A stretch of 56,366 nt of DNA from Candidatus Omnitrophota bacterium (GTDB lineage: Bacteria; Omnitrophota; Gorgyraeia; Zapsychrales; Zapsychraceae): NCBI GenBank assembly GCA_029261065.1, contig JAJDCB010000004.1, forward strand, positions 1 through 56,366, given 5' to 3'. Both the position numbers and the translations under genes were made by a program. Within the stretch, counting starts at the first letter, position 1. The number at the start of each line of letters is the position of its first letter. Below the pieces are notes generated by a model. That model was given only the letters and a program-made list of their open reading frames with translations, was not told the DNA's origin and did no database searches. This document shows positions 1 to 13,235 of the stretch, in pieces.

Positions 1-1977
1 ACCCGTTTCCGTAATGAGATCAATGTCTGTCCAATTAATGCCAGCCGTTGTTAAAACATTTAAATCTGTCCAATTGACACCAGTATCACTTAAGACATCG
101 ATATCATTCCAATTAACTCCCGCTTCTGTCAGGACTTTAAAATCTTCCCAATTTATTCCTGCATCAGAGAGCACATCAATATCTGTCCAATTAACTCCCG
201 CATCACCAAGAACACGCATGTCATCCCAATTAATACCAGTGTCTGAAAGAACATCTAAATCGTTCCAATTGATGCCAGCTTCTGATAACACTTGAAGGTC
301 ATTCCAATTGACACCTGCATCGGATAACACATTGATGTCACTCCAATTAATTCCCGTTTCACTCAACGAACGTATGTCATTCCAATTCACGCCAGCATCA
401 CTTAAGACATCAATGTCATTCCAGTTGACACCGGCTTCAGTTAAAACTTGGAGATCATTCCAATTCACACCCGCATCACTTAATACATCAATATCATTCC
501 AATTGACGCCTGCTTGAGAAAGGACTGTAAAATCGTTCCAATTGATACCCGCACTACTAAGAACATCTATGTCTGTCCAATTAATACCTGCAGTAGATAA
601 AGAGGTTAAATCCGTCCAGTTAACACCCGCGGCACTTAAAACATCAATTTCAGTCCAATTGATTCCGGCATCGCCAAGGACTTGAAGATCATTCCAATTC
701 ACACCCGCATCACTTAAGACATCAATGTCTCCCCAGTTAATTCCGGACTCTGTCATCACTTTTAAATCTGTCCAATTCACACCCGCCTCAGCTAAAGTAT
801 TAAGGTCTTCCCAGTTAACACCAGCTAAAGATAATTCACCAATGTTTGCCCAATTAACACCAGCAGAACTTAACACATCTACATCAACCCAATTAATGCC
901 TGTCTCACTTAATGCTTTAAGGTCAGACCAATTCACACCCGCATCACTTAAGACATCTATATCAGACCAATTGATTCCGGCATCACTCATCGAACGAATG
1001 TCATCCCAATTTATACCTGTGTCACTGATAACATCTATATCTGACCAATTAATACCAGCTTCACTCAATACTCTAAAATCATCCCAGTTAACACCTGCAT
1101 CAGAAAAAACATCTATGTCTGTCCAGTTAATGCCCGCCGCGGTTAAAACACGTAAATCATCCCAATTAATTCCTGCACCACTTAGGATATCGATGTCTGA
1201 CCAATTGATACCTGCTTGAGTTAAAACACTCATGTCGCTCCAATTAATACCGGCATCACTCCATACATCTATATCAGACCAATTAATTCCTGCCTCACTT
1301 AAAACTTTCCAATCCGTCCAGTTAACACCGATATCACTCATGACCTGAATATCATCCCAATTCACACCCGCATTCGATAAGGTTGCCAAGTTATCCCAAT
1401 TAATCGTTTCAGCCCAATTAATTTTAGCTCCACTCATAACAGCGATGTCCGACCAATTAACACTTGATGTGCTCATAAATTGGATGTCAGCCCAATTAAC
1501 ACCAGCATCACTTAAAACATCAATGTCTGACCAATTAATGCCAGACTCAGACATGACCGTTAGGTTATCCCAATTAACTCCTGCCGAGGCAAGAACATCA
1601 AGGTCATTCCAGTTAATTCCACTTGAAGCAAGAATTCCAACATCTGTCCAGTTAACTCCCGAATCACTTAAGACATCAATGTCATCCCAATTGATACCTT
1701 TATTCGTTAAGCTAAATAAATCATCCCAGTTAACTCCTTTATCAGTTAAGACATCAAGATCCGTCCAATTTATACCTGCCTCACTCAAAGCTCGAATATC
1801 CGTCCAGTTAACACTTGTATCAATGGTGTCCGTTACACTCTTTATACTTGTGACATCCGTTCGAAGAAGATCAACATCGTCCCAATTGATCGTATCCGTA
1901 CTCTGTTTAATAACACCAATGTCATCCCAGTTGATAAGATCTGTCTTGGCTTTTATACCAGTGATATCATCCCAGTT
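1..1977 (-). repeat. Coding tandem repeat, 39 bp/13 aa, consensus G[IV]NWxD[IL]xVL[ST]xA
   Basis: Repeat Trp codons (cca on +) at 31, 70, 109 ... 1804: 47 units at 39-bp spacing except one 18-bp unit (INWAET, 1396-1414). Three more divergent NWDD units have Trp at 1882, 1927 and 1972. Confidence 0.97.
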
Positions 1978-2886
1978 GCTTATAACTCGTCGTCGCGTGT
2001 CAACGATGGTTGGTTTAATAACATCAAGAGAAACAAAGGCATTGTATTCGTTGGCTGTTCCAGATTCTAAGACAGTTATGTCTGCAAAGTACGTATCTTC
2101 AAAATCAGAAGGTGTCCAATTGGTGGAAGAAGTAAAAAGTTCTCGTGTTGTATTGAGTGAAAAATCCGTTGTGGCCAGACTCAATTCCGTTGTCGTTCCG
2201 TCGTTTTGATAAATCACAACAGCAGAAGTGTCACCCGTTTCTAAATCAAACTTATCATCACTTGATGCCACCCACGTTAAAATAGTGTAAGCATCATCGG
2301 ATTCATCCCAAACGGCTAAAATTTTAGGACCCGTACCTGTCTCAACATCAAACGAATTAGAAACAGTTGAAGGAAGACCGGGGGCTGTTGCAACAAGAGT
2401 AAAAAACAAACCAGACTTTGATATTCTTAACCCCTCAAAGCTGGCCACACCATTAGCAGCAACTAGTGTAGTTTCACCCTCTAAATTACCATTGCCAGGA
2501 TTGTTAAAAATATCAAGAGTAATGGGCGTTGTGTTATCAGTTTTTACAAGGTTGCCATAGGAGTCATGAATTTCAATCTCTGGTTGTCTTTCAAAAATCA
2601 AACCATGACGTTCTGAGGAAGGAACTTGTGTGAAAATTAATTTTGCAGCGGCTCCATGCTCAAGAGATTCACTTTGAGAAGAGTCTCCCGTCGTTAATCC
2701 TTCAGAGGACCCACCCGAGAATATATTATCACCAAGCGATGACTCTTCATCTCCTGCAAAACTTCCCCCCGTAAATTGCGCATAGACGACGGCGGGAGTT
2801 TGCGCAAAGACAAACATGAATATCACAAAACAAGAGATTGTTTTGTGAATGACTTGTTGAATTTTAGATTTTTTTCTGTGTTTCAT
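1..2886 (-). CDS. Giant exported repeat protein (3'-truncated by the window edge; at least 962 aa): signal peptide, FxGGSxxG motifs, Ig-like domain, 13-aa NW repeats
   Basis: Not in the ORF track because it has no stop in the window. Manual translation from ATG 2886 (upstream in-frame stop at 2917-2919) is open to base 1: MKHRKKSKIQQVIHKTISCFVIFMFVFAQTPAVVYA|QFTGGSFAG...IFSGGSSEG...AAKLIFTQVP...QPEIEIHDSYGNLV...GVASFEGLRISKSG..FTLVATAPGL...SNSFDV (Ig-like), then NW repeats. Confidence 0.93.
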   Translation of the reverse strand, partial: MKHRKKSKIQQVIHKTISCFVIFMFVFAQTPAVVYAQFTGGSFAGDEESSLGDNIFSGGSSEGLTTGDSSQSESLEHGAAAKLIFTQVPSSERHGLIFERQPEIEIHDSYGNLVKTDNTTPITLDIFNNPGNGNLEGETTLVAANGVASFEGLRISKSGLFFTLVATAPGLPSTVSNSFDVETGTGPKILAVWDESDDAYTILTWVASSDDKFDLETGDTSAVVIYQNDGTTTELSLATTDFSLNTTRELFTSSTNWTPSDFEDTYFADITVLESGTANEYNAFVSLDVIKPTIVDTRRRVISNWDDITGIKAKTDLINWDDIGVIKQSTDTINWDDVDLLRTDVTSIKSVTDTIDTSVNWTDIRALSEAGINWTDLDVLTDKGVNWDDLFSLTNKGINWDDIDVLSDSGVNWTDVGILASSGINWNDLDVLASAGVNWDNLTVMSESGINWSDIDVLSDAGVNWADIQFMSTSSVNWSDIAVMSGAKINWAETINWDNLATLSNAGVNWDDIQVMSDIGVNWTDWKVLSEAGINWSDIDVWSDAGINWSDMSVLTQAGINWSDIDILSGAGINWDDLRVLTAAGINWTDIDVFSDAGVNWDDFRVLSEAGINWSDIDVISDTGINWDDIRSMSDAGINWSDIDVLSDAGVNWSDLKALSETGINWVDVDVLSSAGVNWANIGELSLAGVNWEDLNTLAEAGVNWTDLKVMTESGINWGDIDVLSDAGVNWNDLQVLGDAGINWTEIDVLSAAGVNWTDLTSLSTAGINWTDIDVLSSAGINWNDFTVLSQAGVNWNDIDVLSDAGVNWNDLQVLTEAGVNWNDIDVLSDAGVNWNDIRSLSETGINWSDINVLSDAGVNWNDLQVLSEAGINWNDLDVLSDTGINWDDMRVLGDAGVNWTDIDVLSDAGINWEDFKVLTEAGVNWNDIDVLSDTGVNWTDLNVLTTAGINWTDIDLITETG

Positions 2887-2940
2887 GCAAAACTGTTTGT
2901 GTCGATGATAGGATATTTATCAAAAAATCATTACTGCAAA

Positions 2941-4593
2941 CTATGGTGCCGTTCGGCCCAATCGTCCACCTGCAAAAATTCCTAATGACGAATCATATCT
3001 TTGGTTATATCCGTGACTATCTGGATCTTTAACAGCATACTTTCGCGTGGAGGTTTGAAAGTCTGACATATTAGATGATTGAAAATCACCTCCACGAAAA
3101 CCTGAACCAATTGTGCCTATGACACCACGAGAAGAATCAGTAGTGTCAATACCAGGCCAATCATTGTTGGTTGCGTTTCCTTCAAAACTTGTTAACACAC
3201 TTAACTCCCCATCACCATGGGTTCCTAAAAATTCTCGACCTTCTAAACGGCCAATCGTGACAACCATTTCATTTAAATTTCCGGATAACTCAAGAGCGCC
3301 GTAATAACCGGAGCCACTTGTCACACGGTTAGTTGAACTTTCTGCAAAAACACCAACGCGCAAAGCTCCTGGTTGTCCCTCAGCAATACCACCGACCCGA
3401 CCATCACCCGAACTCCAACCTAAACTGTTTCGATTAATATTGGCACTCCCATCAAAAATTTGCTCTGTTCCAATTTCATCTGTGTCTGGAAAAATTTCAC
3501 CAGCCTCACCTTGGTTGTACGAAGTGGTTCCCCAAACATATTCATTAGCTAATGGCGAAATATCAATACCGCGAGCCGTTTTTTCATATTCCAATTCTGT
3601 TAAAGGCCGTAAGCCCGCCCAGTCAGCATAAGCTAATAAATCAGGCCAAGAAACAAACGACATCGCTCGATCTGGACGCAACGTGGTCGCATCTGACTTT
3701 GGATCATTTACATCCCAACTCACGGTGTTTCGATTAACAACCCCATCAGAATTTTTTCCACCCTGAAAAGAATGGGTAACATCACGCGTCAGCTTCGCGG
3801 CATTAGAAAGCGTATTAAAAAACGCAACCCATTGGCCTTCTGTTAATTCATATTTCATGTGATAAAAGTCACCATAACCCTTAGGAAAGGATGAGGGAAT
3901 TAAGAAAATGGATCCTGTCGAACCTTCACCTGAGGCGCCTGTACTCGTATAATAATATCCATTTGTTGATGTATTTGTCGTCGTGATCGCACCTTCATTT
4001 TGAATATACCAAGGATCATTGTCGCTCGTTCCTTGTTTCAACTTATAATCTGAAGAACTATTTCCGTCTCCCGCATAAAAAGCGCCTTGTGGGACATAAA
4101 TCATTTCGATAGCAAACGCTCGATTAATCGTGTTAGCAGCCATAGCTTGATTGTCTGAAAGTCCATCTTGATTGTAATCCCAAACAAATTGAACATTTTG
4201 TGCTGAAATATTTCCAGTTGCCAAATCTGTTTTTTGCAAGAAAAAACCTTTTTCATCATTTGGAACAATCATTTCAAAACCGACGGGTGGTTGAAAGCCA
4301 GGAGGATTAGTTCCATTACTAGCCATACTGGCATGATGCCAGGTAACACCTGCATCTGTGGAATATTTAAGAAACACCCAAACAGCATCGTAATTATTGG
4401 TATCTCTCCAAGAATTTTCCCAAGTCAAATCACCTTGAAAAGTAATGGTATTAACAGCTTCATTCGTATCAACCACTTCAAAATTATCTATAGTTAGGTT
4501 ATTAGCCACAGCACCTTGAGCAGCAAACAAAACAATAAGTGCTACCAAACAATTCGTGATAAACTTTCTCAATTTTAAATTCTTTTTGGTCAT
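2941..4593 (-). CDS. Exported SUMF1/FGE-sulfatase-fold (C-type-lectin-fold) protein, paralog 1
   Basis: Signal peptide ending AVA|NNLTIDN; motifs WENSWR..NYDAVWVF, EMIYVPQGAF, MKYELTEGQWVAF, SWPDLLAYADWAGLRPLTELEYEK, ELSGNLNE, RGG, GGRLGR. Start moved from 4644 to ATG 4593 (GGAG upstream, 4 nt after the previous stop). Confidence 0.88.
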   Translation of the reverse strand: MTKKNLKLRKFITNCLVALIVLFAAQGAVANNLTIDNFEVVDTNEAVNTITFQGDLTWENSWRDTNNYDAVWVFLKYSTDAGVTWHHASMASNGTNPPGFQPPVGFEMIVPNDEKGFFLQKTDLATGNISAQNVQFVWDYNQDGLSDNQAMAANTINRAFAIEMIYVPQGAFYAGDGNSSSDYKLKQGTSDNDPWYIQNEGAITTTNTSTNGYYYTSTGASGEGSTGSIFLIPSSFPKGYGDFYHMKYELTEGQWVAFFNTLSNAAKLTRDVTHSFQGGKNSDGVVNRNTVSWDVNDPKSDATTLRPDRAMSFVSWPDLLAYADWAGLRPLTELEYEKTARGIDISPLANEYVWGTTSYNQGEAGEIFPDTDEIGTEQIFDGSANINRNSLGWSSGDGRVGGIAEGQPGALRVGVFAESSTNRVTSGSGYYGALELSGNLNEMVVTIGRLEGREFLGTHGDGELSVLTSFEGNATNNDWPGIDTTDSSRGVIGTIGSGFRGGDFQSSNMSDFQTSTRKYAVKDPDSHGYNQRYDSSLGIFAGGRLGRTAP

Positions 4594-4597
4594 AATG

Positions 4598-6187
4598 TTA
4601 TAAACTCCCATCATACGTTCTTGCCCCACGTCCGCCCACATCACTAAAAGATGATGCTTGGCCGTTTGCGGCTTGGCTACGATCAGAAATTCTTAAAGCT
4701 GTGCTCGCATCAATAAAAGAACCGCCTCTGAGACCAGACCCTATAGCCGATGTCACGCCACGGCTTGTAACAGCATCAATCCCTGGCCAATCTAATTCAT
4801 TGGCATTGCCTTCAAATCCGCTCGCTGAACTTAAAACACCATCGCCGTGCGTTCCAGCAAACCCGCGACCAGTTGCATTACCAATTGTTACAAGCTGCTC
4901 CATTAAATTCCCAGAAAGTTCCATAACACCGTAATATCCTGCACCCGCTAAAACACGTGTAGAATTTTCTTGAGCAAAAATTCCAGATCTCAACGGACCA
5001 AGACTATAATCAGCTCCACTACTACTGTCTCCACCTGTAAAAGAAATATTGTTATAATTCGCATTTGCATTTGCTGTTAAAATCGTTTCTGTTCCCGTTT
5101 CATCGGCTCCAGAGATTGAAGTGGCCGCGGTAATGGCTATATCTCCCCAAGCAAACTCTCCTTCTGTCGGTACCAAAGGACCACGACTAATTTTTTCAAA
5201 TTCTAACTCTGTCAACGGCCTTAAAGCGGCCCAATCAAGAAAGGCAGCTAGATCCATCCAACTTAAAAAACCAACAGCTCTTGAAGGGCGATCGGTAGAA
5301 CAAGCTAAAGAAGCCCCGCTACAATTAAGAGTGTTTCTTGATTGAACTGTATCCGTTGACTTATGACCTGAGTTTGTTAAATCGCGATTTGATCTTGCAT
5401 TATTAGAAGCTAAGGCATTAAAAAAATCACTCCATTGCCCTTCTGTAATTTCATATTTCATAACATAAAAGTCTCCATACCCTTTCGGATAACTAGCCGA
5501 AATAGAAAAGGAAGAACCTGTAGGATCCTCTGTTGCATTGCCAGCTGAAGAATATAAATAACCATCGTTAGTCGCATTAGAAACACTAATCGAAGAATCG
5601 CTTGAGATGTACCAAGGATCCGTATCGGCATTTCCTTCCATTAAAGAAGCGCTACTCGTTCCATAATCTCCAACATAAAACTCACCCTCAGGGATATAAA
5701 CCATCTCTAGAGCAAAAACGTTTAATTTAACCTCACTCTCATCAGTAAATCCGCAACTAGCGTAATCAATTTTGAATTGAACTTCATTTGAAGCAAGTGA
5801 TTCAACAACACCAAAATTTTTAGGTCTGATAAATGCACCTTTTTTGTCACTTGGCACATAAATATCAATATTTGTTGAATCCCCAGCAGTAAAACCTGCA
5901 GGATTGAGGCCAACACCTGAAAGTTCACAGATATTTTTACTTATCGGAGTTACTGCTGGGTCATATAAACGAACCGTCACCCACACAGCATCATGATTAC
6001 TTTTCGTTTTCCAAGAATTTTCCCAGGAAACATCAAATTGAACCATGACAGTATCGTTAGACGGGTTTCTTTCTTCGAGTGATACATTATCGATTGACAA
6101 ATTGTTGGCAAATAGGGCAGGAACAGAAATAAAAGCTATACTGAGGATTGTCAGGAAGGAAAGGGTTATTTTAAAAACCTTTGTCAT
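4598..6187 (-). CDS. Exported SUMF1/FGE-sulfatase-fold protein, paralog 2
   Basis: Signal peptide ending LFA|NNLSIDN; same motifs (WENSWK..NHDAVWV, MKYEITEGQW, WAALRPLTELEFEK, MELSGNLME, RGGSF, GGRGAR); RBS GAGGTG before the ATG. Confidence 0.88.
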   Translation of the reverse strand: MTKVFKITLSFLTILSIAFISVPALFANNLSIDNVSLEERNPSNDTVMVQFDVSWENSWKTKSNHDAVWVTVRLYDPAVTPISKNICELSGVGLNPAGFTAGDSTNIDIYVPSDKKGAFIRPKNFGVVESLASNEVQFKIDYASCGFTDESEVKLNVFALEMVYIPEGEFYVGDYGTSSASLMEGNADTDPWYISSDSSISVSNATNDGYLYSSAGNATEDPTGSSFSISASYPKGYGDFYVMKYEITEGQWSDFFNALASNNARSNRDLTNSGHKSTDTVQSRNTLNCSGASLACSTDRPSRAVGFLSWMDLAAFLDWAALRPLTELEFEKISRGPLVPTEGEFAWGDIAITAATSISGADETGTETILTANANANYNNISFTGGDSSSGADYSLGPLRSGIFAQENSTRVLAGAGYYGVMELSGNLMEQLVTIGNATGRGFAGTHGDGVLSSASGFEGNANELDWPGIDAVTSRGVTSAIGSGLRGGSFIDASTALRISDRSQAANGQASSFSDVGGRGARTYDGSL

Positions 6188-6376: not shown

Positions 6377-7174
6377 TTACCTCTCTAACGGTGAATCCAC
6401 TAATCCACGAATGAATAATTCTGCTTTTACGATTTTTTCTTTTACAAAATCAGAATCTTTCGCTGTTGGATTCAAATACAAATACATCTTGTAATGCTTT
6501 AATGCTGTTTTCTGATCATTTAACTGCTCCCCACTAACAAAAGCCAAATTAAAATGGGAATCTGGATCATCTGGCATTAAAGTAACAGCTTGATAATATT
6601 CTCGAACAGCAATTTCATATTCACCTTTTTGGAAATAGATATTTCCCATATTGTAATGAGCTTTGGCCGCATCTTCTCTTAGTCTCTCATCACCTTCAGT
6701 AAAAGCATCAATGCGTGATAACAAATCTGTTGTTTCATTTTCACGCCCCTTTACTTCCTCAGTGCTTTTTGATTTATTTGCTGCCAATAAAAACACACCA
6801 TCTGTTATTGACTTAGAATCTTGATTAGATTTTTGAATACTATTTCTCGTCGCTGTTTTACTTTTTAAAGAAGCTAATTGCATCGTATCATGAACAACTG
6901 GCATCTCGTTTTTTGTAACTTTCGCGTTCATTCTTAATTTACTAATTTGAGTTTCTAACCTTTGATTTTTCGTGGCCAAACTATGATTTTGTTCGATAAC
7001 ATTTTTTAGCGTTTCACTCATTGCTGCAACTTGCTTTTCTTTGATGGTTAGATCGGCACTTGCAAATGTTGCGCTAAGAACAAACATTACTGTCAGTGAA
7101 AGAGTTAAAGCTGTGAGACTTTTTTTCATCTTTCTTTGATTTTCATATTTTGTGGCCATAATTTTTATCCTCAC
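6377..7174 (-). CDS. Exported coiled-coil + TPR protein
   Basis: Signal peptide (ASA|D); coiled coil; TPR units AKAHYNMGNIYFQKGEYEIAVREYYQAVTLMP and DSHFNLA...ALKHYKMYLYLNP. The true start may be a downstream Met. Confidence 0.85.
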   Translation of the reverse strand: MRIKIMATKYENQRKMKKSLTALTLSLTVMFVLSATFASADLTIKEKQVAAMSETLKNVIEQNHSLATKNQRLETQISKLRMNAKVTKNEMPVVHDTMQLASLKSKTATRNSIQKSNQDSKSITDGVFLLAANKSKSTEEVKGRENETTDLLSRIDAFTEGDERLREDAAKAHYNMGNIYFQKGEYEIAVREYYQAVTLMPDDPDSHFNLAFVSGEQLNDQKTALKHYKMYLYLNPTAKDSDFVKEKIVKAELFIRGLVDSPLER

Positions 7175-7197: not shown

Positions 7198-8802
7198 TTA
7201 GTCTGTACTATATGACTTAAACGGCTTAATTGTGCCTTGAACTTTCATGTAATCATCTTTACCCGTAACAATCCTAGGTGTAATAAATATGACAATTTCT
7301 GTTTTAGCAAAATCATCATTTGTTCGACCAAACATAGGGCCAAAAAGTGGAAGATCCATAAGCACAGGAAAACCTTTCTTTGTGTGAACCTTATCATTCT
7401 TCTTTAAACCACCCATAATAATTGTGTGAGCATCTTTAACAAGAACTGTCGTTTCAACTTCAGTTTTATTGACTTGAGGAATTCCGCCCCCTTGAGAGGA
7501 AACCTCTCCAACAACAGATGAGATTTCTGGTCTTAATCGCATTGTGACGTAACCATCATCATTAATGGTCGGTGTCACGTTTAGTTTTAAACCAACGTCC
7601 ACAAACCGAACATCTTCACTAGTAATGGCATTATCACCTGTTCCGGAAGTCGTTGAGATAATATAGGGAACAGTATCACCGACATGAATCTTTGCTTCTT
7701 CATTATTGGTAATTAAGACCGTTGGATTCGATAAGATTTTTGTATCACTAACCTGCTCTAATGATCGAACCGTTGTCTCAAAAGCATCTTCACTAAAATC
7801 ACCTACAGCAAATTGACCATAATGACTAGCCAGTTCGTCACTAGCAGAAATTTTAGCGTTTTGGCTACCCAGATAGAAGTTTGAAAAACTTAATTTTTTT
7901 ATTTGACTATTGCTGCTGTCCCTAAAATCAAGTTGCCAGTCAATACCGACATCATATTTTGGTTTCATTACGATTTGTAAAATACGGGCGCTTATTAATA
8001 CTTCTTTTGTAGGAGAATCTAATTTAGCTAATATTTTCTCGATTTCCTTTTTGCGATCTGGAAATACACGAACAATGAGCTTATTGGAACGCTCATCAGC
8101 CATAATTGATCCAACACTCTTAGCATCAATTCGCGATCTTAGCTTATCTGCCACAACATCAGCACTAGCATACTGCAATGTGTAAACAATTGTCTCAAGC
8201 GGCTTCTCTATTTCTTTAATAGCAGCCTTCATAAGTGCAATCCCCTCAGCAGTATCAATCATAACAACAGATCCCGTGTCTTCATCTATAATAATCTTAC
8301 CGACATTGCTTTTAATACTGTCCAAAGCAGCCAAAACATAACTTGGTTTGGAATATTTAAGATGAATAATCTCAACCATTGTTTTATCACTAAAACTTTT
8401 TCCAAACATCGCTTCATACTCTTGCTCGGTCAAAACTTGTACAATATTACCCTGAACTTTGTAGGCCAAACGATTGGAGATAATGACAATATCTAGAACA
8501 TCTTTGACCGATACGTTTTCTAAGAAAACAGTAGCACGCCCTTCGACACTTGGACTTATAACGACATTAAATTCACCCTCGTCAGCAAGGAACTTAATTA
8601 TGTCGACAATATTCATATCCCGTATTTCAAGCCTTATCTTTCGTTTCATTCTTTCAGAAAGAGCGCCTTTGACATCGGAAATCTTAATGGGCTTCCCATC
8701 AGCAAACAAATCTGTTGCTTGACCTATCATGCCCGCAAAAGCACAGGTAAAGACAACCAAAGGAATACACCATTTTAAAGATTTATTATTTTGAGTTATC
8801 AT
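7198..8802 (-). CDS. Type II secretion / type IV pilus secretin (GspD/PilQ family)
   Basis: N-domains (ADERSNKLIV, LDSPTKEVLISARILQ) and secretin domain (ILSNPTVLITNNEEAKIHVGD, DVGLKLNVTPTIN, PVLMDLPLFGPMF, TEIVIFITPRIV). Confidence 0.95.
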   Translation of the reverse strand: MITQNNKSLKWCIPLVVFTCAFAGMIGQATDLFADGKPIKISDVKGALSERMKRKIRLEIRDMNIVDIIKFLADEGEFNVVISPSVEGRATVFLENVSVKDVLDIVIISNRLAYKVQGNIVQVLTEQEYEAMFGKSFSDKTMVEIIHLKYSKPSYVLAALDSIKSNVGKIIIDEDTGSVVMIDTAEGIALMKAAIKEIEKPLETIVYTLQYASADVVADKLRSRIDAKSVGSIMADERSNKLIVRVFPDRKKEIEKILAKLDSPTKEVLISARILQIVMKPKYDVGIDWQLDFRDSSNSQIKKLSFSNFYLGSQNAKISASDELASHYGQFAVGDFSEDAFETTVRSLEQVSDTKILSNPTVLITNNEEAKIHVGDTVPYIISTTSGTGDNAITSEDVRFVDVGLKLNVTPTINDDGYVTMRLRPEISSVVGEVSSQGGGIPQVNKTEVETTVLVKDAHTIIMGGLKKNDKVHTKKGFPVLMDLPLFGPMFGRTNDDFAKTEIVIFITPRIVTGKDDYMKVQGTIKPFKSYSTD

Positions 8803-9412
8803 AGCGTATTATTATCTCCTCATCTTCATAGCCTAGTTTGATACTATCGGCATAAATGGTTTTTACAAGTATATCGCCCAATTTGTCTCCAACTTTCTTA
8901 AAATGGGTTTCACTTTTCACGGTATCCTCAATCATCGCCGCAGCACTTTCAACACGGTCAAACCAAGATATACCGACAAGCTTTAAGTGTTGGGTTTTCT
9001 CAACGATCCGCCTATTCTCATCAGAAACATCAACATCTGCTCTTAAATTTTGTTCTTCGGTAAATGGGTAAAAAATGTTGCGGGCTGAAAACTTCATTCT
9101 GTAGAGTGGCAATGGTCTCTTGTCTGGTTCAAAATTATCGTTCTTATTTCCGCTAACCGGCCCACCTAATTTTGTGGCAATGTTTACAGGTTTCCCCATC
9201 TTCTTTTTACCTTTCACAAATTCATTAACAGCAAATCCCGCACCCGCAACAATCAAAAGTAACAATACTAAATTAAGAACTTTTATCAAGCCAATAACAT
9301 CAACAGATTTTTTTGGCTTCTTTTCTTCAGCTTTATTTTGCACAGCACCACTTGCTTCTAACATCTTTAAAAGCTTTTGGTCTGCCGTTTCTTTTTTTGC
9401 TTTAGCTGTCAT
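8786..9412 (-). CDS. Bitopic GspC/PilP-like secretion accessory protein
   Basis: One TM segment, RNIFYPF, then LKLVGISW...AAAMIED...KVGD.LG.ILVKTI.ADSIKL (HR-domain-like). Overlaps the secretin start. Confidence 0.7.
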   Translation of the reverse strand: MTAKAKKETADQKLLKMLEASGAVQNKAEEKKPKKSVDVIGLIKVLNLVLLLLIVAGAGFAVNEFVKGKKKMGKPVNIATKLGGPVSGNKNDNFEPDKRPLPLYRMKFSARNIFYPFTEEQNLRADVDVSDENRRIVEKTQHLKLVGISWFDRVESAAAMIEDTVKSETHFKKVGDKLGDILVKTIYADSIKLGYEDEEIIIRYDNSK

Positions 9413-9466: not shown

Positions 9467-10366
9467 TTATACTTGATTAATAACTTCAACACCCTCATTT
9501 TTCTCCGCCGAGAAAAACTGTTTTTCTTTTTCAATGACATCCCTAACAAACGTGTTATCAACAATTTTCTGATCTTCCATAACTAATTCTTTCATAATTT
9601 TATGACACAACATGGTAATTTTTCTTGGGTAACCTTTTGTGTAATTATAGACCTCACTAATCGCATCATCTAAAAAAATCTTAGCACCACCTTTGTATCC
9701 CGCTTTATTAATTCGAAAATTTATTAGCTCTTTAGTTTCATTGACATCCAAAGGATTTAATGTGAATTTAAAACTTATGCGATCTAAAAAATTACTCATA
9801 TGCACAATTTTGGAATAAAGTTCAAGCTGACCTAACAAAACAAGTTGGATTAATTTATGCTCATTCGTTTCGAAATTTAACAAAATACGTAATGATTCCA
9901 AAGTGGCCAAATCCAACTTTTGAGCCTCATCCACAATCAAAACTATAGTGCGATTCTCCTTAAGCGTTTTTTGAATCAAAAACGTCTCAATCACATCTCT
10001 AAGCTCCAATAAATCACAATTTTTCACATCTAGATTATCAGGCAAATCAATATCCATGTTTTTCACAAGTGACAGTAAGAATTGATCTTGTGTACTAAAA
10101 GAAGGATCAAGAATCATATGAAAGATGATATCTCCGCGTTTATTAAGCTCATGTAGAAGTTTTCTAGAAAGCGTGGTTTTTCCCGTTCCAACATCGCCTA
10201 AAATGACGGATAAGCCCCTTCTTAGGCGTAATTCTATCAATAAGTTCGTTAAAGCGAGATCATGTTCGCGGGTATGATAAAAAAATTCGGGATTAGGACT
10301 GGTAGAAAAAGGCTCCCTTTGGAAACCAAGAATGGAATAATAACCTAATGTATTATCTGCGGGCAT
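9467..10366 (-). CDS. ExeA/GspA-family AAA ATPase
   Basis: GFQREPFSTSPNPEFFY, Walker A GDVGTGKT, Walker B LIVDEAQ, QLVLLGQLEL, GYPRKI. No C-terminal peptidoglycan-binding domain. Confidence 0.92.
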   Translation of the reverse strand: MPADNTLGYYSILGFQREPFSTSPNPEFFYHTREHDLALTNLLIELRLRRGLSVILGDVGTGKTTLSRKLLHELNKRGDIIFHMILDPSFSTQDQFLLSLVKNMDIDLPDNLDVKNCDLLELRDVIETFLIQKTLKENRTIVLIVDEAQKLDLATLESLRILLNFETNEHKLIQLVLLGQLELYSKIVHMSNFLDRISFKFTLNPLDVNETKELINFRINKAGYKGGAKIFLDDAISEVYNYTKGYPRKITMLCHKIMKELVMEDQKIVDNTFVRDVIEKEKQFFSAEKNEGVEVINQV

Positions 10367-10443: not shown

Positions 10444-11436
10444 TTATTTGGCTTTTTTTAATAGGTTTTTAGCAAAAACATTTATAATCCCCGTCGAGAA
10501 ACCAAATGTTCTTGCAAAAGCTCTCATAAACATAACAAAACCATAAAAAAAAAGTTTTCTTTTCTTTTTTTGCATGATCCAGCTGTAGTAAAGCTCTATC
10601 ATTAATAAACACAAAGAGATTGATGCGCCGCCGATAAAACCTAAAGAAGAATTTACAAAGATGCCATAAATAATACTCATGCAAATCAACAAAGAAAACG
10701 GAACCTCTAACATATCCTTCCAAAATGTGTACTGATCCCCACCAACCATGTTTGGATGCGTTTTATAAAGCCAAGCTCGCCAAAATCCATGTCGAAATTG
10801 CTCCTGAAGATACTTTTTAACACTAGAAGGGTGGTTATGACGCACAATAGCATCTAAGCAAAAATACATTTCATACCCCTTTTTAGTGATTTTATAACTT
10901 AGATCATTATCTTCTCCACTGGCATGGAGATAGGACTCATCAAAACCACCAACCTGCTTAAAAATGGACTTACGCATCCCCACGTTATAACTACCAAAAA
11001 CAACCGTTTTTTCACCCATCAAATACTGATGACGATAAATTATCTCCTGATGTACGCATAAGGCCAATGTGCTTTCTGGATTAGCAATACCATAGCTGCC
11101 CGCCACGACATCTGCTTTTTTATGATTAAAATAAATCATCGCATTTTTAATCCAGTCTTGATCGGCAAAGCAATCGGAGTCCGTAAAAAAAATAACATCT
11201 CCCTTGGCCATTGCAGCCCCTTTATTCCGAGCCTTGGCTGGACCAGCATTAGTTTGATGAAAATATCTCACTTGGTTATATCGTTTTATTAGCTCAGCAG
11301 ATTTATCGCTAGAACCATCATCAACAACAATAACCTCGATAGGTTGATAACTTTGTTGAAAAACACAATCAAGCACTTGGCTTATCGTTTGTTCACAATT
11401 GTAAGCAGGAATAATTATACTGACGAGAGAAGACAT
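10444..11436 (-). CDS. Glycosyltransferase family 2 with C-terminal TM helices
   Basis: VSIIIPAYN, VVDDGSSD, NAGPAKARN, FTDSD, GEDNDL. Start adjusted to ATG 11436 to avoid overlap. Confidence 0.92.
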   Translation of the reverse strand: MSSLVSIIIPAYNCEQTISQVLDCVFQQSYQPIEVIVVDDGSSDKSAELIKRYNQVRYFHQTNAGPAKARNKGAAMAKGDVIFFTDSDCFADQDWIKNAMIYFNHKKADVVAGSYGIANPESTLALCVHQEIIYRHQYLMGEKTVVFGSYNVGMRKSIFKQVGGFDESYLHASGEDNDLSYKITKKGYEMYFCLDAIVRHNHPSSVKKYLQEQFRHGFWRAWLYKTHPNMVGGDQYTFWKDMLEVPFSLLICMSIIYGIFVNSSLGFIGGASISLCLLMIELYYSWIMQKKKRKLFFYGFVMFMRAFARTFGFSTGIINVFAKNLLKKAK

Positions 11437-11440
11437 GGAT

Positions 11441-12106
11441 TTAAGGTTTTCGGGCCACTGTGAATAACAGCATTCCAAATAGACGTCCTACCCATTTATC
11501 TGGAGAGAAGGCAAAAGGAAACGTATTAAGACCTCCTTGATTAACAACAAACGCCCCATTTCTTTGATTTAAATCAAGCAGTTGTTTAAATACAAAAGGC
11601 GTTTCTTCAATGCCTGGCATATACAAAGGACGAATGATTTCCCACGGAGAAAATCGATTAGGCACAACTGTAACAATGACACCATCTGTTGTTAGAAGAC
11701 TAAACAAATTTGTAAAAATAACATCTTGCTCTGCTGCTGTAAAATGTTCAAATAATCCGTCTGTAAAAATAATATCAAAACGATTATCAATATCTCCCGC
11801 CAAATTCGCTCTTAAAAGATCTTTTTGTAATAATGTCGTTTGACCCTGTGTCATGGTTCGCGCTATGTCTAATGCTTCTTGTGAATAGTCTAAAGATGAG
11901 GTTTTCATCCCGCTATCACAAAAGTATTTTGAAAAAAATCCACTCCCACATCCCGCATCTAATGCACACCCACCGGGCTTTACATATTCTTGCAAGACCG
12001 ACATAATTCTTTTTTTAGACCAACTGATCTTTGTAAATTTCTTTGTTTGATCTAAACTCCAAAAATGATTCCAATCTTGCGATTGAGGCATTGCTGTTTT
12101 ATTCAT
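11441..12106 (-). CDS. Class I SAM-dependent methyltransferase
   Basis: ALDAGCGSG motif I; FDIIFTDGLFEHF. Confidence 0.9.
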   Translation of the reverse strand: MNKTAMPQSQDWNHFWSLDQTKKFTKISWSKKRIMSVLQEYVKPGGCALDAGCGSGFFSKYFCDSGMKTSSLDYSQEALDIARTMTQGQTTLLQKDLLRANLAGDIDNRFDIIFTDGLFEHFTAAEQDVIFTNLFSLLTTDGVIVTVVPNRFSPWEIIRPLYMPGIEETPFVFKQLLDLNQRNGAFVVNQGGLNTFPFAFSPDKWVGRLFGMLLFTVARKP

Positions 12107-12465
12107 TAACTATTACCCTTATCTTCTTTTTTTAATTTTTCAATCTCGTATTCTAACACACCAATTTTTTGTGCCACCGAATCATTACGATTGTTTTGTT
12201 GGCATAAAAATATCGTCATTAATAAACTTAAAAATACAAACACTGCTAACAAAACAAAGAAAATAAAATTACTCGCTAATTCAAAACCAAAAAAATCAGC
12301 CAAAGAAAATAACAACTGATCAAAGATCGAAAATACAATAGATAATAACGAAACAAACAGCCAACCAGCTGCATATTTAAATGTCAATTTTTCTTTTCGA
12401 ATCAATTCAATAATTAACAAAAAGATAATTGAGGAAAGAAAAATCGCAAGATACTTAATATTCAT
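12106..12465 (-). CDS. DUF2304-family small membrane protein (GacJ/Rv3632-like partner of a polyprenyl-phosphate sugar synthase)
   Basis: Three TM segments, IELIRKEKL..KYA..W pattern, C-terminal coiled coil (SVAQKIGVLE); directly follows a DPM1-like GT2. Confidence 0.85.
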   Translation of the reverse strand: MNIKYLAIFLSSIIFLLIIELIRKEKLTFKYAAGWLFVSLLSIVFSIFDQLLFSLADFFGFELASNFIFFVLLAVFVFLSLLMTIFLCQQNNRNDSVAQKIGVLEYEIEKLKKEDKGNS

Positions 12466-12473
12466 AAATCGCT

Positions 12474-13235
12474 TTAAATTTCTTTAGCTTTAAGTTTATC
12501 CAATAAAATGGCAACCGTAACCTTTATCATGTAATAAAGTGTTTTTAGATATCGTATAGAGCTGTGTCCTGCGACACGCTTGCGCATCGTAACAGGAACC
12601 TCGATTATTTTCGCATTATATCGTCGGGCAACAACAATGGCCTCAGGCTCAGGAAAGTCTTGTGGATAATAGCGAGCAAATACATCAATACACTTTCGAT
12701 CAAAGGCCCTAAAGCCCGAAGTTGGATCAGATATTTTACATCCCGTTAAAAAACTAATGAGGCGTGCAAAAAAATTAATACCAATACGCCTTACAAAAGC
12801 AGAACGATAACTAAGAAATGGTGGAATAAAACGACTACCTATTGTCATATTCATACCATTATTAAAAATGGGTTCTAAAATATTTGCTAAAAACTTTACA
12901 TCATGTTGTCCATCGGCATCAACTTGAACAGCAATGTCAAAATTGTTATCGCGCGCAAACTGAAAGCCTGTTTGAACAGCACCACCTATTCCTAAATTAA
13001 AAGGTAAAGAAACAACATCAACACCCATCGCTTTTGCTTCTTGAGCAGTCTTATCCTTAGAACCATCATTGATCACTAAAATTTGAAGAGGGTACGATAA
13101 TGAAAGTATATCTTGGATTGTTGAGCGAATACTTCCCTCTTCGTTGTAAGCTGGAATTATAATTAATGTTTTATGCGTTAATAACTGATGAGAAATCGAT
13201 TCTGCAGATATATTTGGATTAAGTGTATGAGACAT
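12474..13235 (-). CDS. DPM1-like GT2 (polyprenyl-phosphate sugar synthase-like)
   Basis: IIIPAYNEE, INDGSKD, NLGIGGAVQTG, VDADGQHD, IGSRF, DPTSGFRA, R..GHSSI. Confidence 0.92.
   Translation of the reverse strand: MSHTLNPNISAESISHQLLTHKTLIIIPAYNEEGSIRSTIQDILSLSYPLQILVINDGSKDKTAQEAKAMGVDVVSLPFNLGIGGAVQTGFQFARDNNFDIAVQVDADGQHDVKFLANILEPIFNNGMNMTIGSRFIPPFLSYRSAFVRRIGINFFARLISFLTGCKISDPTSGFRAFDRKCIDVFARYYPQDFPEPEAIVVARRYNAKIIEVPVTMRKRVAGHSSIRYLKTLYYMIKVTVAILLDKLKAKEI

Follow-up and report, generated by a model that had tools for sequence, protein, structure and literature searches.

A stretch of 56,366 nucleotides from a Candidatus Omnitrophota bacterium (GenBank assembly GCA_029261065.1, contig JAJDCB010000004.1; hereafter the window) carries at one end the 5' part of a gene for a secreted protein that consists largely of tandem 13-residue repeats around an invariant Asn-Trp (NW) pair. 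The gene is real, as is its repeat array; it belongs to a family with a wide distribution in the phylum and sits in a conserved gene order. On balance, we favour the view that the NW protein is the exported fibre or adhesin of an Omnitrophota apparatus combining an F-type ATPase with machinery resembling a type IV pilus (T4P) or a type II secretion system (T2SS), as the best explanation of the observations as a whole, from fold to role. The initial annotation, made from the letters of the window alone, had proposed an unlisted, acidic gene of at least 47 tandem units with invariant NW, an old and selected array, a continuation past the window edge and a repeat family that it did not recognise, and had dismissed the plus-strand open reading frames (ORFs) as shadows. 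These proposals are borne out by the results below, to which we add the N-terminal immunoglobulin (Ig)-like domains, the part of the gene on a second contig, giant orthologues and the context of a secretion locus.

The gene part in the window is a single minus-strand frame of 962 codons (1..2886; protein P0001) with an ATG start, open at the window end, which is also the contig end. It is missing from the default ORF list because it is listed only when open ends are allowed, and the plus-strand ORFs at 725..1219 and 1445..2209, as well as those at 2..295 and 308..517, are antisense shadows rather than genes. The end coordinate first given, 1977, is the first base of the Asn codon of the first tandem N-W; the frame itself reaches 2886, and the 13-residue units proper occupy 1..1815. 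In an independent assembly, the Logan contigs of a public run that may be the source sample, window stretches 19-483, 700-1520 and 1491-3000 are matched with 0 differences and no indel listed; among the sequencing runs listed as holding the sequence, none was of RNA. When Logan contigs were collected at 90% likeness, their summed depth was 9-157 over bases 1-1900, where the unique part had 8.25, and the contigs showed numerous joints and loose ends; such summed depth is no copy number and was not used as evidence. Behind the high values over the array may lie units lost from the assembly, or sequences of related organisms in the same sample.

The window is the whole of contig C24 in a 2.7-Mb, 36-contig genome, and the gene was therefore cut by assembly. 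A six-frame scan of this genome located N-W arrays at just two sites, the end of C24 (minus strand) and the start of C26 (plus strand). The first 1,257 bases of C26 (G000:C26:1-1257, plus strand) hold a 5'-open frame of 418 amino acids, comprising 13 further units followed by a C-terminal domain of about 250 residues that repeats [ST]xFGxI motifs, appears helical by eye and ends in ...KTYFESAN. The same domain with the same ending closes the full-length homologues P0002 (1,292 amino acids) and P0003 (868 amino acids), and in the relative G037 a single uninterrupted ORF lies between the same flanking genes. Judged by these sequence comparisons, the pieces on C24 and C26 are two parts of one gene. 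Their contig ends share no terminal overlap, so that units between them are missing; the two parts together place the whole protein at no fewer than 1,380 residues, with at least 64 N-W motifs.

Repeat parsing recovered 51 N-W dipeptides in the 962-residue part. Three looser units of 15, 15 and 26 residues (1816..1983, minus strand; residues 302-357) of the form x-I-N-W-D-D-[IV]..IK.KTD lead into the array proper, which spans residues 358-962 (window 1..1815) and consists of units 5-51, namely 46 full 13-residue units and one of six residues. On the minus strand, units 5-14 (1426..1815; residues 358-487) are followed by the short stutter unit KINWAE (1408..1425; residues 488-493), which breaks the 13-residue register, and then by units 16-51 (1..1407; residues 494-962), in which two types alternate. 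Type A reads G-I-N-W-x-D-I-D-V-L-S-D-A and type B G-V-N-W-x-D-L-x-V-L-x-E-A, and their alternation produces a super-repeat of 26 residues (78 nt). Orthologues from several genera also have the stutter unit at this point of the array, after 'MSGAK', and it may mark a kink or a docking site. Over 45 full units, with the last one excluded, Asn3, Trp4 and [IV]2 are present in all 45, followed by Gly1 (42), Asp6 (41), [ST]11 (40), [IL]7 (37), Leu10 (36), Val9 (33) and Ala13 (32); positions 5, 8 and 12 vary most. The regularity far exceeds what the amino acid composition would give: residues 358-962 hold 47 N-W dipeptides with 45 spacings of 13, compared with a mean of 5.3 dipeptides, a maximum of 15 and no more than two spacings of 13 in 20,000 shuffles of the same residues. 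The region is strongly acidic (Asp 14.5%, Glu 2.8%, Lys 1.2%, Arg 1.0%).

At the DNA level, the units have a mean identity of 62% (62-74% matches by Tandem Repeats Finder), with identical nucleotides at codon positions 1, 2 and 3 in fractions of 0.62, 0.79 and 0.45, and identical residues are encoded by the same codon in 2,892 of 6,298 comparisons between units. Because the units are this far diverged, with second codon positions kept best and third positions least, the array is old and has been held by selection on the protein.

Homologues are numerous. A word-indexed search returned 28 at E ≤ 1e-3, and all six entries that name an organism are assigned to Candidatus Omnitrophota or Omnitrophica. 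A HMMER search with a 208-residue fragment against 1.84 billion representative proteins yielded 344 matches at E ≤ 1e-3, of which 103 reached ≤ 1e-10 and 22 reached ≤ 1e-30; among 141 proteins from this search (P0030-P0170), 84 have three or more N-W spacings of 13. Whole-genome searches recovered the NW protein in 28 of 40 close relatives, and with a repeat profile 88 genomes were positive in a phylum-wide sample of 400 others, 9 from the same family, 34 from the same order, 13 from the same class and 32 from other classes. Where assemblies are contiguous, giant orthologues appear: single ORFs of 8,091 amino acids in G037 (579 N-W, 573 spacings of exactly 13), 7,191 in G102 (511 and 499) and 10,972 in G252 (798 and 792), the longest found. 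DNA units in a giant array are 64-73% alike, and the number of units among relatives ranges from about 30 to about 800. In four relatives (G002, G007, G040 and G394), more than one contig carries an N-W array (C34 and C4 in G002 and C12 and C20 in G394, for instance); the fibre gene may have paralogues there, or assembly may have broken up a single gene. More distant relatives among metagenome proteins (P0017, P0024 and P0025) combine 15-residue 'KTDTINWSDVTGIK' repeats with MG2 and dockerin domains; these KTDTINWSDV-type repeats, as seen in P0017 and P0024, match the three looser units ahead of the array in P0001.

None of the libraries searched holds a described repeat of this kind. P0001 has no match at E ≤ 1 to the Pfam families of alpha-solenoids (TPR, HEAT, ARM, Sel1, LRV, PPR, TALE), and its period is 13, or 26 for paired units, against repeats of 24-42 residues with two or three helices in those families; Pfam beta-solenoid families (LRR, pentapeptide, hexapeptide, RTX, pectate-lyase-like) likewise gave no match at E ≤ 1. 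All NCBIfam matches to the repeat protein are far below their cut-offs, PHROGs gave weak matches with no passing stretch, and a PDB sequence search with P0001 returned 0 matches at E ≤ 1, with a single hit for the C-terminal domain (E 4.6, a designed protein). For residues 507-844, the best ESM Atlas score was 0.86, to unrelated families (YjiS-like 20%, 2-Hacid_dh 11%). The 13-residue repeat of Lysostaphin_N (PF25533, cut-off 60 bits) does not match P0001 and touches only P0004, P0008 and P0012 at 18.8-27 bits. Public names of the relatives are 'hypothetical protein', 'LamG domain-containing' and 'carboxypeptidase-like regulatory domain-containing', and we found no description of an Asn-Trp or 13-residue repeat in the literature, including the accessible text of Omnitrophota papers, whose supplements may list these ORFs. 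The NW repeat is thus a family without a description in the libraries and literature searched.

One library entry could be taken to say otherwise. Against Pfam Ntox33 (PF15533; cut-off 28.4 bits), P0001 scores 63 bits and P0002 43 bits over the whole sequence, and on this score the protein could be read as a polymorphic toxin carrying Ntox33 domains. We regard this as scarcely credible: no single stretch matches at E ≤ 1, the best one covering profile positions 5-33 of 65; P0003, with its 33 N-W units, has no match at E ≤ 0.01; P0008 stays below the cut-off with 20.6 bits; and the gene has neither a toxin-like architecture nor an adjacent immunity gene. Membership in Ntox33 was rejected, since the score adds up from numerous weak alignments, each partial, to the acidic variant of the unit. 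A whole-sequence score of this kind with no valid domain match could lead automatic pipelines to mislabel the family as toxins.

The abundance of Asp at positions 6, 8 and 12 in the window genome, together with the resemblance of V-N-x-x-D-[FIL]-x-[IV]-L to the loop-helix of the dockerin segments in P0017 and P0024, would fit a chain of degenerate dockerin- or EF-hand-like calcium sites. This, too, is very unlikely. An hhalign comparison of the NW profile with two dockerin segments gave a probability of 0.06%, PF00404 has no match in P0001 at E ≤ 1, and a 13-residue unit is too short for a 12-residue loop plus a helix. Moreover, Asp8 and Asp12 are not conserved, with Asn or Gly at position 8 and Lys or Arg at position 12 in G037. 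On the profile probability and these non-acidic positions, the calcium-binding interpretation was rejected.

Upstream of the array, the protein begins with a signal peptide (residues 1-36; 2779..2886, this and the following features all on the minus strand) that has a basic n-region and a hydrophobic core, is modelled as a helix at residues 5-29 and is probably cleaved between VYA and QFTGG; orthologues keep the mature start A-Q-[YF]-[TS]-G-G. A Gly/Ser-rich linker (residues 37-75; 2662..2778) follows, with a predicted local distance difference test score (pLDDT) of 31-52. An AlphaFold2 run on residues 1-519, whose alignment included 16 orthologues, modelled residues 80-290 as two beta-sandwiches at pLDDT 78-94. 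Domain 1 (residues ~76-184; 2335..2661) is Ig-like, of the type found in invasin/intimin and in GH2 C-terminal domains: its structural matches (Z 9-11.6) include GH2 enzymes, intimin D00-D0, invasin, the S-layer protein SbsC and filamin, with Z 10.9-11.6 and root-mean-square deviations of 2.2-2.7 over 98-101 residues for GH2 C-terminal domains and intimin D00-D0; within the invasin/intimin type, 6tqd scores Z 10.9 and 1cwv Z 10.1. P0001 has no match to the Pfam Big_* families at E ≤ 1, though the fold of domain 1 is Ig-like. Domain 2 (residues ~185-292; 2011..2334) resembles an MtrC domain and FnIII-like domains of the leptin receptor (Z 7.6 to ~9). The homologue P0002 has an additional LamG domain. 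When the C24 and C26 translations were read by eye, with no predictor, we saw no transmembrane segments besides the signal peptide.

For the unit itself, AlphaFold2 was run on 16 units with 21 alignment rows and on the first 12 units with orthologues. In both models, each unit has by DSSP a helix of eight to nine residues from Trp4 to position 12, joined by a loop of Ala13, Gly1, [IV]2 and Asn3. Over a pooled set of 3,042 units from 14 arrays (39,546 residues), the hydrophobic moment averaged for positions 4-13 is highest, 3.7-4.0, at 110-120 degrees, and there are only 3 Pro and 0 Cys in all these residues. The variable positions 5, 8 and 12 are those expected to be exposed in a helix. Under the rules of helix capping, Asn3 would be the N-cap and Asp6 the N3 partner of a capping box, [IV]2 and [IL]7 would form a hydrophobic staple, and Gly1 would be the C' residue of a Schellman motif with Leu10 and [IV]2 as its hydrophobic pair; the unit appears to fit this combined pattern. 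Taken together, the models weakly suggest that each unit is one short helix followed by a four-residue turn. The roughly 10-residue amphipathic helix plus turn proposed in the initial annotation is therefore upheld in kind, through the helix of eight to nine residues and the position of the moment peak, but weakly, at an array pLDDT of 42-61. The 16-unit model has a mean pLDDT of 46.5, the predicted template-modelling scores of the two runs are 0.24 and 0.32, and, at values this low, the fold and even the choice of helix over strand are tentative; the stacking of units into a Trp-lined solenoid, also proposed in the initial annotation, is at this stage no more than a possibility. Foldseek on the repeat model returned generic alpha-solenoids (designed toroids, TALE, mTERF) at template-modelling (TM) scores of 0.2-0.4, which we judged not meaningful. 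Covariation between units is weak and diffuse under a within-genome shuffle null over the 3,042 units, with a best excess mutual information of 0.068 nat between position 12 of unit i and position 5 of unit i+1 and some further signal in same-position pairs of units i and i+2; we derived no contacts from it because it is too weak and is confounded by block duplication.

This leaves some room for a non-helical unit, in a beta-solenoid or another superhelix, such as one with coils of 26 residues, a ladder of Asn inside and a stack of Trp. An invariant Asn and a conserved Gly in every unit are typical of solenoid turns, beta-branched Ile or Val is frequent at positions 2, 7 and 9, and the AlphaFold2 confidence is too low to dismiss such folds. 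We nevertheless consider them unlikely. Neither AlphaFold2 run placed a strand in the array, so that the beta-solenoid considered at the outset was not predicted; the hydrophobic moment falls to 1.8-2.0 at 160-180 degrees from its 3.7-4.0 at 110-120 degrees; Trp4, Ile7, Leu10 and Ala13 follow one another at i, i+3; and, as noted, the Pfam beta-solenoid families do not match. A second alternative places the stability of the fold in an assembly: the fibre would be a parallel homo-oligomer, such as a trimer nucleated by the helical C-terminal domain, whose monomer has no stable fold. The low pLDDT of the monomer despite a highly regular sequence would be explained in this way. A hydrophobic arc so wide that only positions 5, 8 and 12 vary, and a helical C-terminal domain conserved together with its repeated [ST]xFGxI motifs, also speak for it. 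The N-terminal Ig-like domains are, by contrast, of a kind usual in monomeric adhesins, and we hold the oligomer to be possible rather than probable.

The gene lies within a locus of secretion and motor genes that supplies the functional context. Directly upstream, all on the minus strand of the window, are two paralogous secreted FGE-sulfatase-domain proteins of 529-567 amino acids (2941-4644 and 4598-6187), a TPR protein (6377-7174), a secretin (7198-8802), a 208-residue protein of unknown family (8786-9412) and an ExeA-like AAA_22 ATPase (9467-10366). All five relatives examined have one or more FGE-like copies at that position, and both copies are resolved in G037, G252 and G394. The FGE-family proteins GldJ and GldK are parts of the gliding and type IX secretion machinery of Bacteroidota; the NCBIfam models of GldJ and GldK did not match the FGE-like proteins at E ≤ 0.001. 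Two family-2 glycosyltransferases and an S-adenosylmethionine-dependent methyltransferase (10444-13235, minus strand) adjoin the ExeA-like ATPase gene, and a family-2 glycosyltransferase also precedes the locus in G037.

Downstream on C26, the ATG of a gene for a 443-residue secreted protein (G000:C26:1257-2588) overlaps the stop codon of the NW gene (TAATG), an arrangement that indicates translational coupling. This partner matches no Pfam or NCBIfam family, and the Atlas clusters closest to it (score 0.97) consist of hypothetical proteins from Omnitrophota. Among the kin genomes, a strong partner orthologue occurs in 27 of 28 NW-positive relatives and in 1 of 12 NW-negative ones, there at a contig start; these counts describe co-occurrence, with no statistical test applied. 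Between the partner and the GspE/GspF genes lies a set of F1-like alpha, delta, gamma and beta subunits (G000:C26:2637-8519), which pass the atpA and atpD cut-offs and match Mycoplasma gliding-ATPase models only below cut-offs. The set is supernumerary, since other ATPase alpha/beta pairs are encoded on C17 and C19. It is followed by a GspE/PilB of 747 amino acids (G000:C26:8764-11007) with a C-terminal PilZ domain, which suggests control by cyclic di-GMP, and further by GspF, an MA-family peptidase and a pseudopilin that passes the NCBIfam GspG cut-off; the GspE/PilB orthologue in G037 (581 amino acids) has no PilZ domain. Gene order around the uninterrupted G037 gene is the same as here, and, in the relatives whose flanking ends were fetched (tblastn; one from another class), the upstream order recurs in all five and the downstream order in all three.

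The locus is of a type already noted in the phylum. By the definition given in the accessible text of Seymour et al. 2023 (PMC10066038), T4P or T2SS genes with an extra, non-respiratory F-type ATPase alpha/beta pair within 10 kb, the secretin, GspE/PilB, GspF/PilC and GspG genes with the F1 alpha/delta/gamma/beta set on C26:2637-13628 form such a locus. According to the same text, non-respiratory F-type ATPase/type IVa pilus loci occur in every Omnitrophota class, are related to the gliding ATPases of Mycoplasma and have been proposed to serve attachment to, or motility on, host cells. That text and the accessible text of West-Roberts et al. 2023 (bioRxiv 10.1101/2023.11.21.568195) also mention giant ORFs with poor annotation in the vicinity of T2SS-like loci.

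We propose that the NW protein is a giant repeat protein exported by the Sec pathway, with the signal peptide followed by two Ig-like domains, the 13-residue NW array and the helical C-terminal domain. Each unit would most likely form a short amphipathic helix from Trp4 to residue 12 and connect to the next through a tight A-G-[IV]-N turn; the invariant Asn would cap the helix, and the invariant Trp together with Ile/Leu7, Leu10 and Ala13 would form a buried stripe. Many units could then pack into a thin, stiff and elongated fibre whose length is set by copy number. Such a fibre would be the exported cargo or a surface appendage of the machine encoded in the locus, and its Ig-like domains, joined by LamG in some species, would act as the binding module for attachment to other cells or surfaces. 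The packing, the passage through the locus secretin and the adhesive role are each suggested rather than observed. If each helix pair advances the fibre by ~1 nm, our own assumption for a two-layer alpha-solenoid, the assembled parts would measure ~30 nm or more, and the orthologue with 798 units ~400 nm.

A bolder form of this proposal, which we think improbable as it stands, would make the NW array a new structural class with the shortest known helical repeat, 13 residues per helix and turn, and the protein a single-molecule fibre of up to several hundred nanometres, longer than the ultra-small cell, serving as the tether, 'leg' or harpoon line of a T2SS/T4P-like machine with an F1-like rotary ATPase that catches and holds hosts, its length tuned by ~30 to ~800 units. 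The fixed position of the gene inside a machine operon and its strict coupling to the partner gene would also suit a structural role in the envelope or in the machine itself, as a coat, a sheath or the length ruler of a pilus or secretion apparatus, and so would a copy number that varies enormously between genomes. Tandem Ig-like domains and the LamG domain of P0002 are typical of binding modules, however, and the translations show by eye no transmembrane segment besides the signal peptide; we therefore rate a purely structural role as somewhat unlikely.

Several observations weigh against the exported fibre or adhesin that we favour, beyond the low model confidence, the generic fold matches and the weak covariation of the array described above. 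Export through the neighbouring secretin is suggested by gene order alone. A fibre that measures hundreds of nanometres does not sit easily with a classical T2SS, whose cargo folds in the periplasm. Twelve of the 40 close relatives gave no match to the NW protein, and the NW-positive genome G035 gave none to the partner. The acidity of the array is lineage-specific, with position 12 occupied by Lys or Arg in G037, and the whole-sequence Ntox33 score is formally above the gathering cut-off.

The Omnitrophota comprise abundant nanobacteria that have not been cultured and presumably live on other cells. Giant ORFs and F-type ATPase/pilus loci have each been noted in them before with no function assigned, and the NW gene links the two: a phylum-wide repeat family proves to have a constant place, not remarked on before, in a locus for which a part in host interaction has been suspected. 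A conserved and recognisable fibre gene with an obligate partner gene in the middle of the locus is a concrete candidate for the item that the machine exports or moves. The repeat is unclassified, its unit is kept at exactly 13 residues over up to ~10,000 residues, and it is attractive for structure determination and repeat-protein design. With a profile of the repeat, hundreds of fragments now called 'hypothetical' could be annotated, breaks in assemblies recognised and the false Ntox33 toxin label dropped.

Among known systems, giant adhesins such as LapA, MpIBP, SiiE and invasin/intimin share with the NW protein the arrangement of end modules and a long extender, and the N-terminal domain of the NW protein has the Ig-like fold of invasin/intimin. 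The extender of these adhesins, however, is made of Ig-like domains of ~100 residues and not of a 13-residue array, and they carry a type I secretion signal or an autotransporter barrel where the NW protein has a Sec signal peptide. Alpha/alpha solenoids (designed helical toroids, TAL effector, mTERF) resemble the low-confidence NW model in their short helices and tight turns, but their known classes have 24-42 residues per repeat, compared with 13 in the NW unit or 26 per helix pair, the TM scores are only 0.2-0.4 and there is no sequence similarity. The leucine-rich variant repeat, for comparison, has 24 residues. The 15-residue 'KTDTINWSDVTGIK' proteins P0017, P0024 and P0025 have the I-N-W-x-D core in common with the NW protein and differ in their period of 15, in having no long 13-residue array and in their domain context.

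SprB of Flavobacterium johnsoniae and Gli349/Gli521 of Mycoplasma mobile are giant repetitive surface filaments of gliding machineries. The NW locus is similar in pairing a large repetitive surface protein with a motor or secretion apparatus, in its extra F1-like ATPase and in its FGE-family neighbours, the family of GldJ and GldK. There is no sequence relationship, though, and the repeats of SprB and Gli349 are much longer and thought to be beta-rich. Mycoplasma gliding has itself been linked to an F1-like ATPase, according to the accessible text of Seymour et al. 2023 (PMC10066038). From the same phylum come the Archaeovorins and 'Dockerin-type' giant proteins which, as far as the accessible text on them goes, are likewise very long, poorly annotated, predicted to be extracellular and encoded beside secretin/GspE/GspF-type genes and PilZ, with attachment as the proposed role. 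They are described there as mosaics of at least 30,000 residues that combine HEAT domains, enzymatic (GT, GH or peptidase) domains or dockerin and TSP3 repeats with a C-terminal transmembrane anchor and SecA-like parts, whereas the NW protein is a pure 13-residue array between two small end modules, encoded between secretin and F1-like genes. No Archaeovorin-type domain was found in P0001 or in the C26 part, and the largest NW orthologue has 10,972 residues compared with 30,000 or more. The accessible text of PMC10066038 and of bioRxiv 10.1101/2023.11.21.568195 contains no mention of an NW-type repeat that we could find, and their supplements may list these ORFs. The NW repeat itself is thus undescribed, whereas the protein is of a general kind already known, that of giant, repetitive proteins of the cell surface whose genes adjoin those of a secretion or pilus system.

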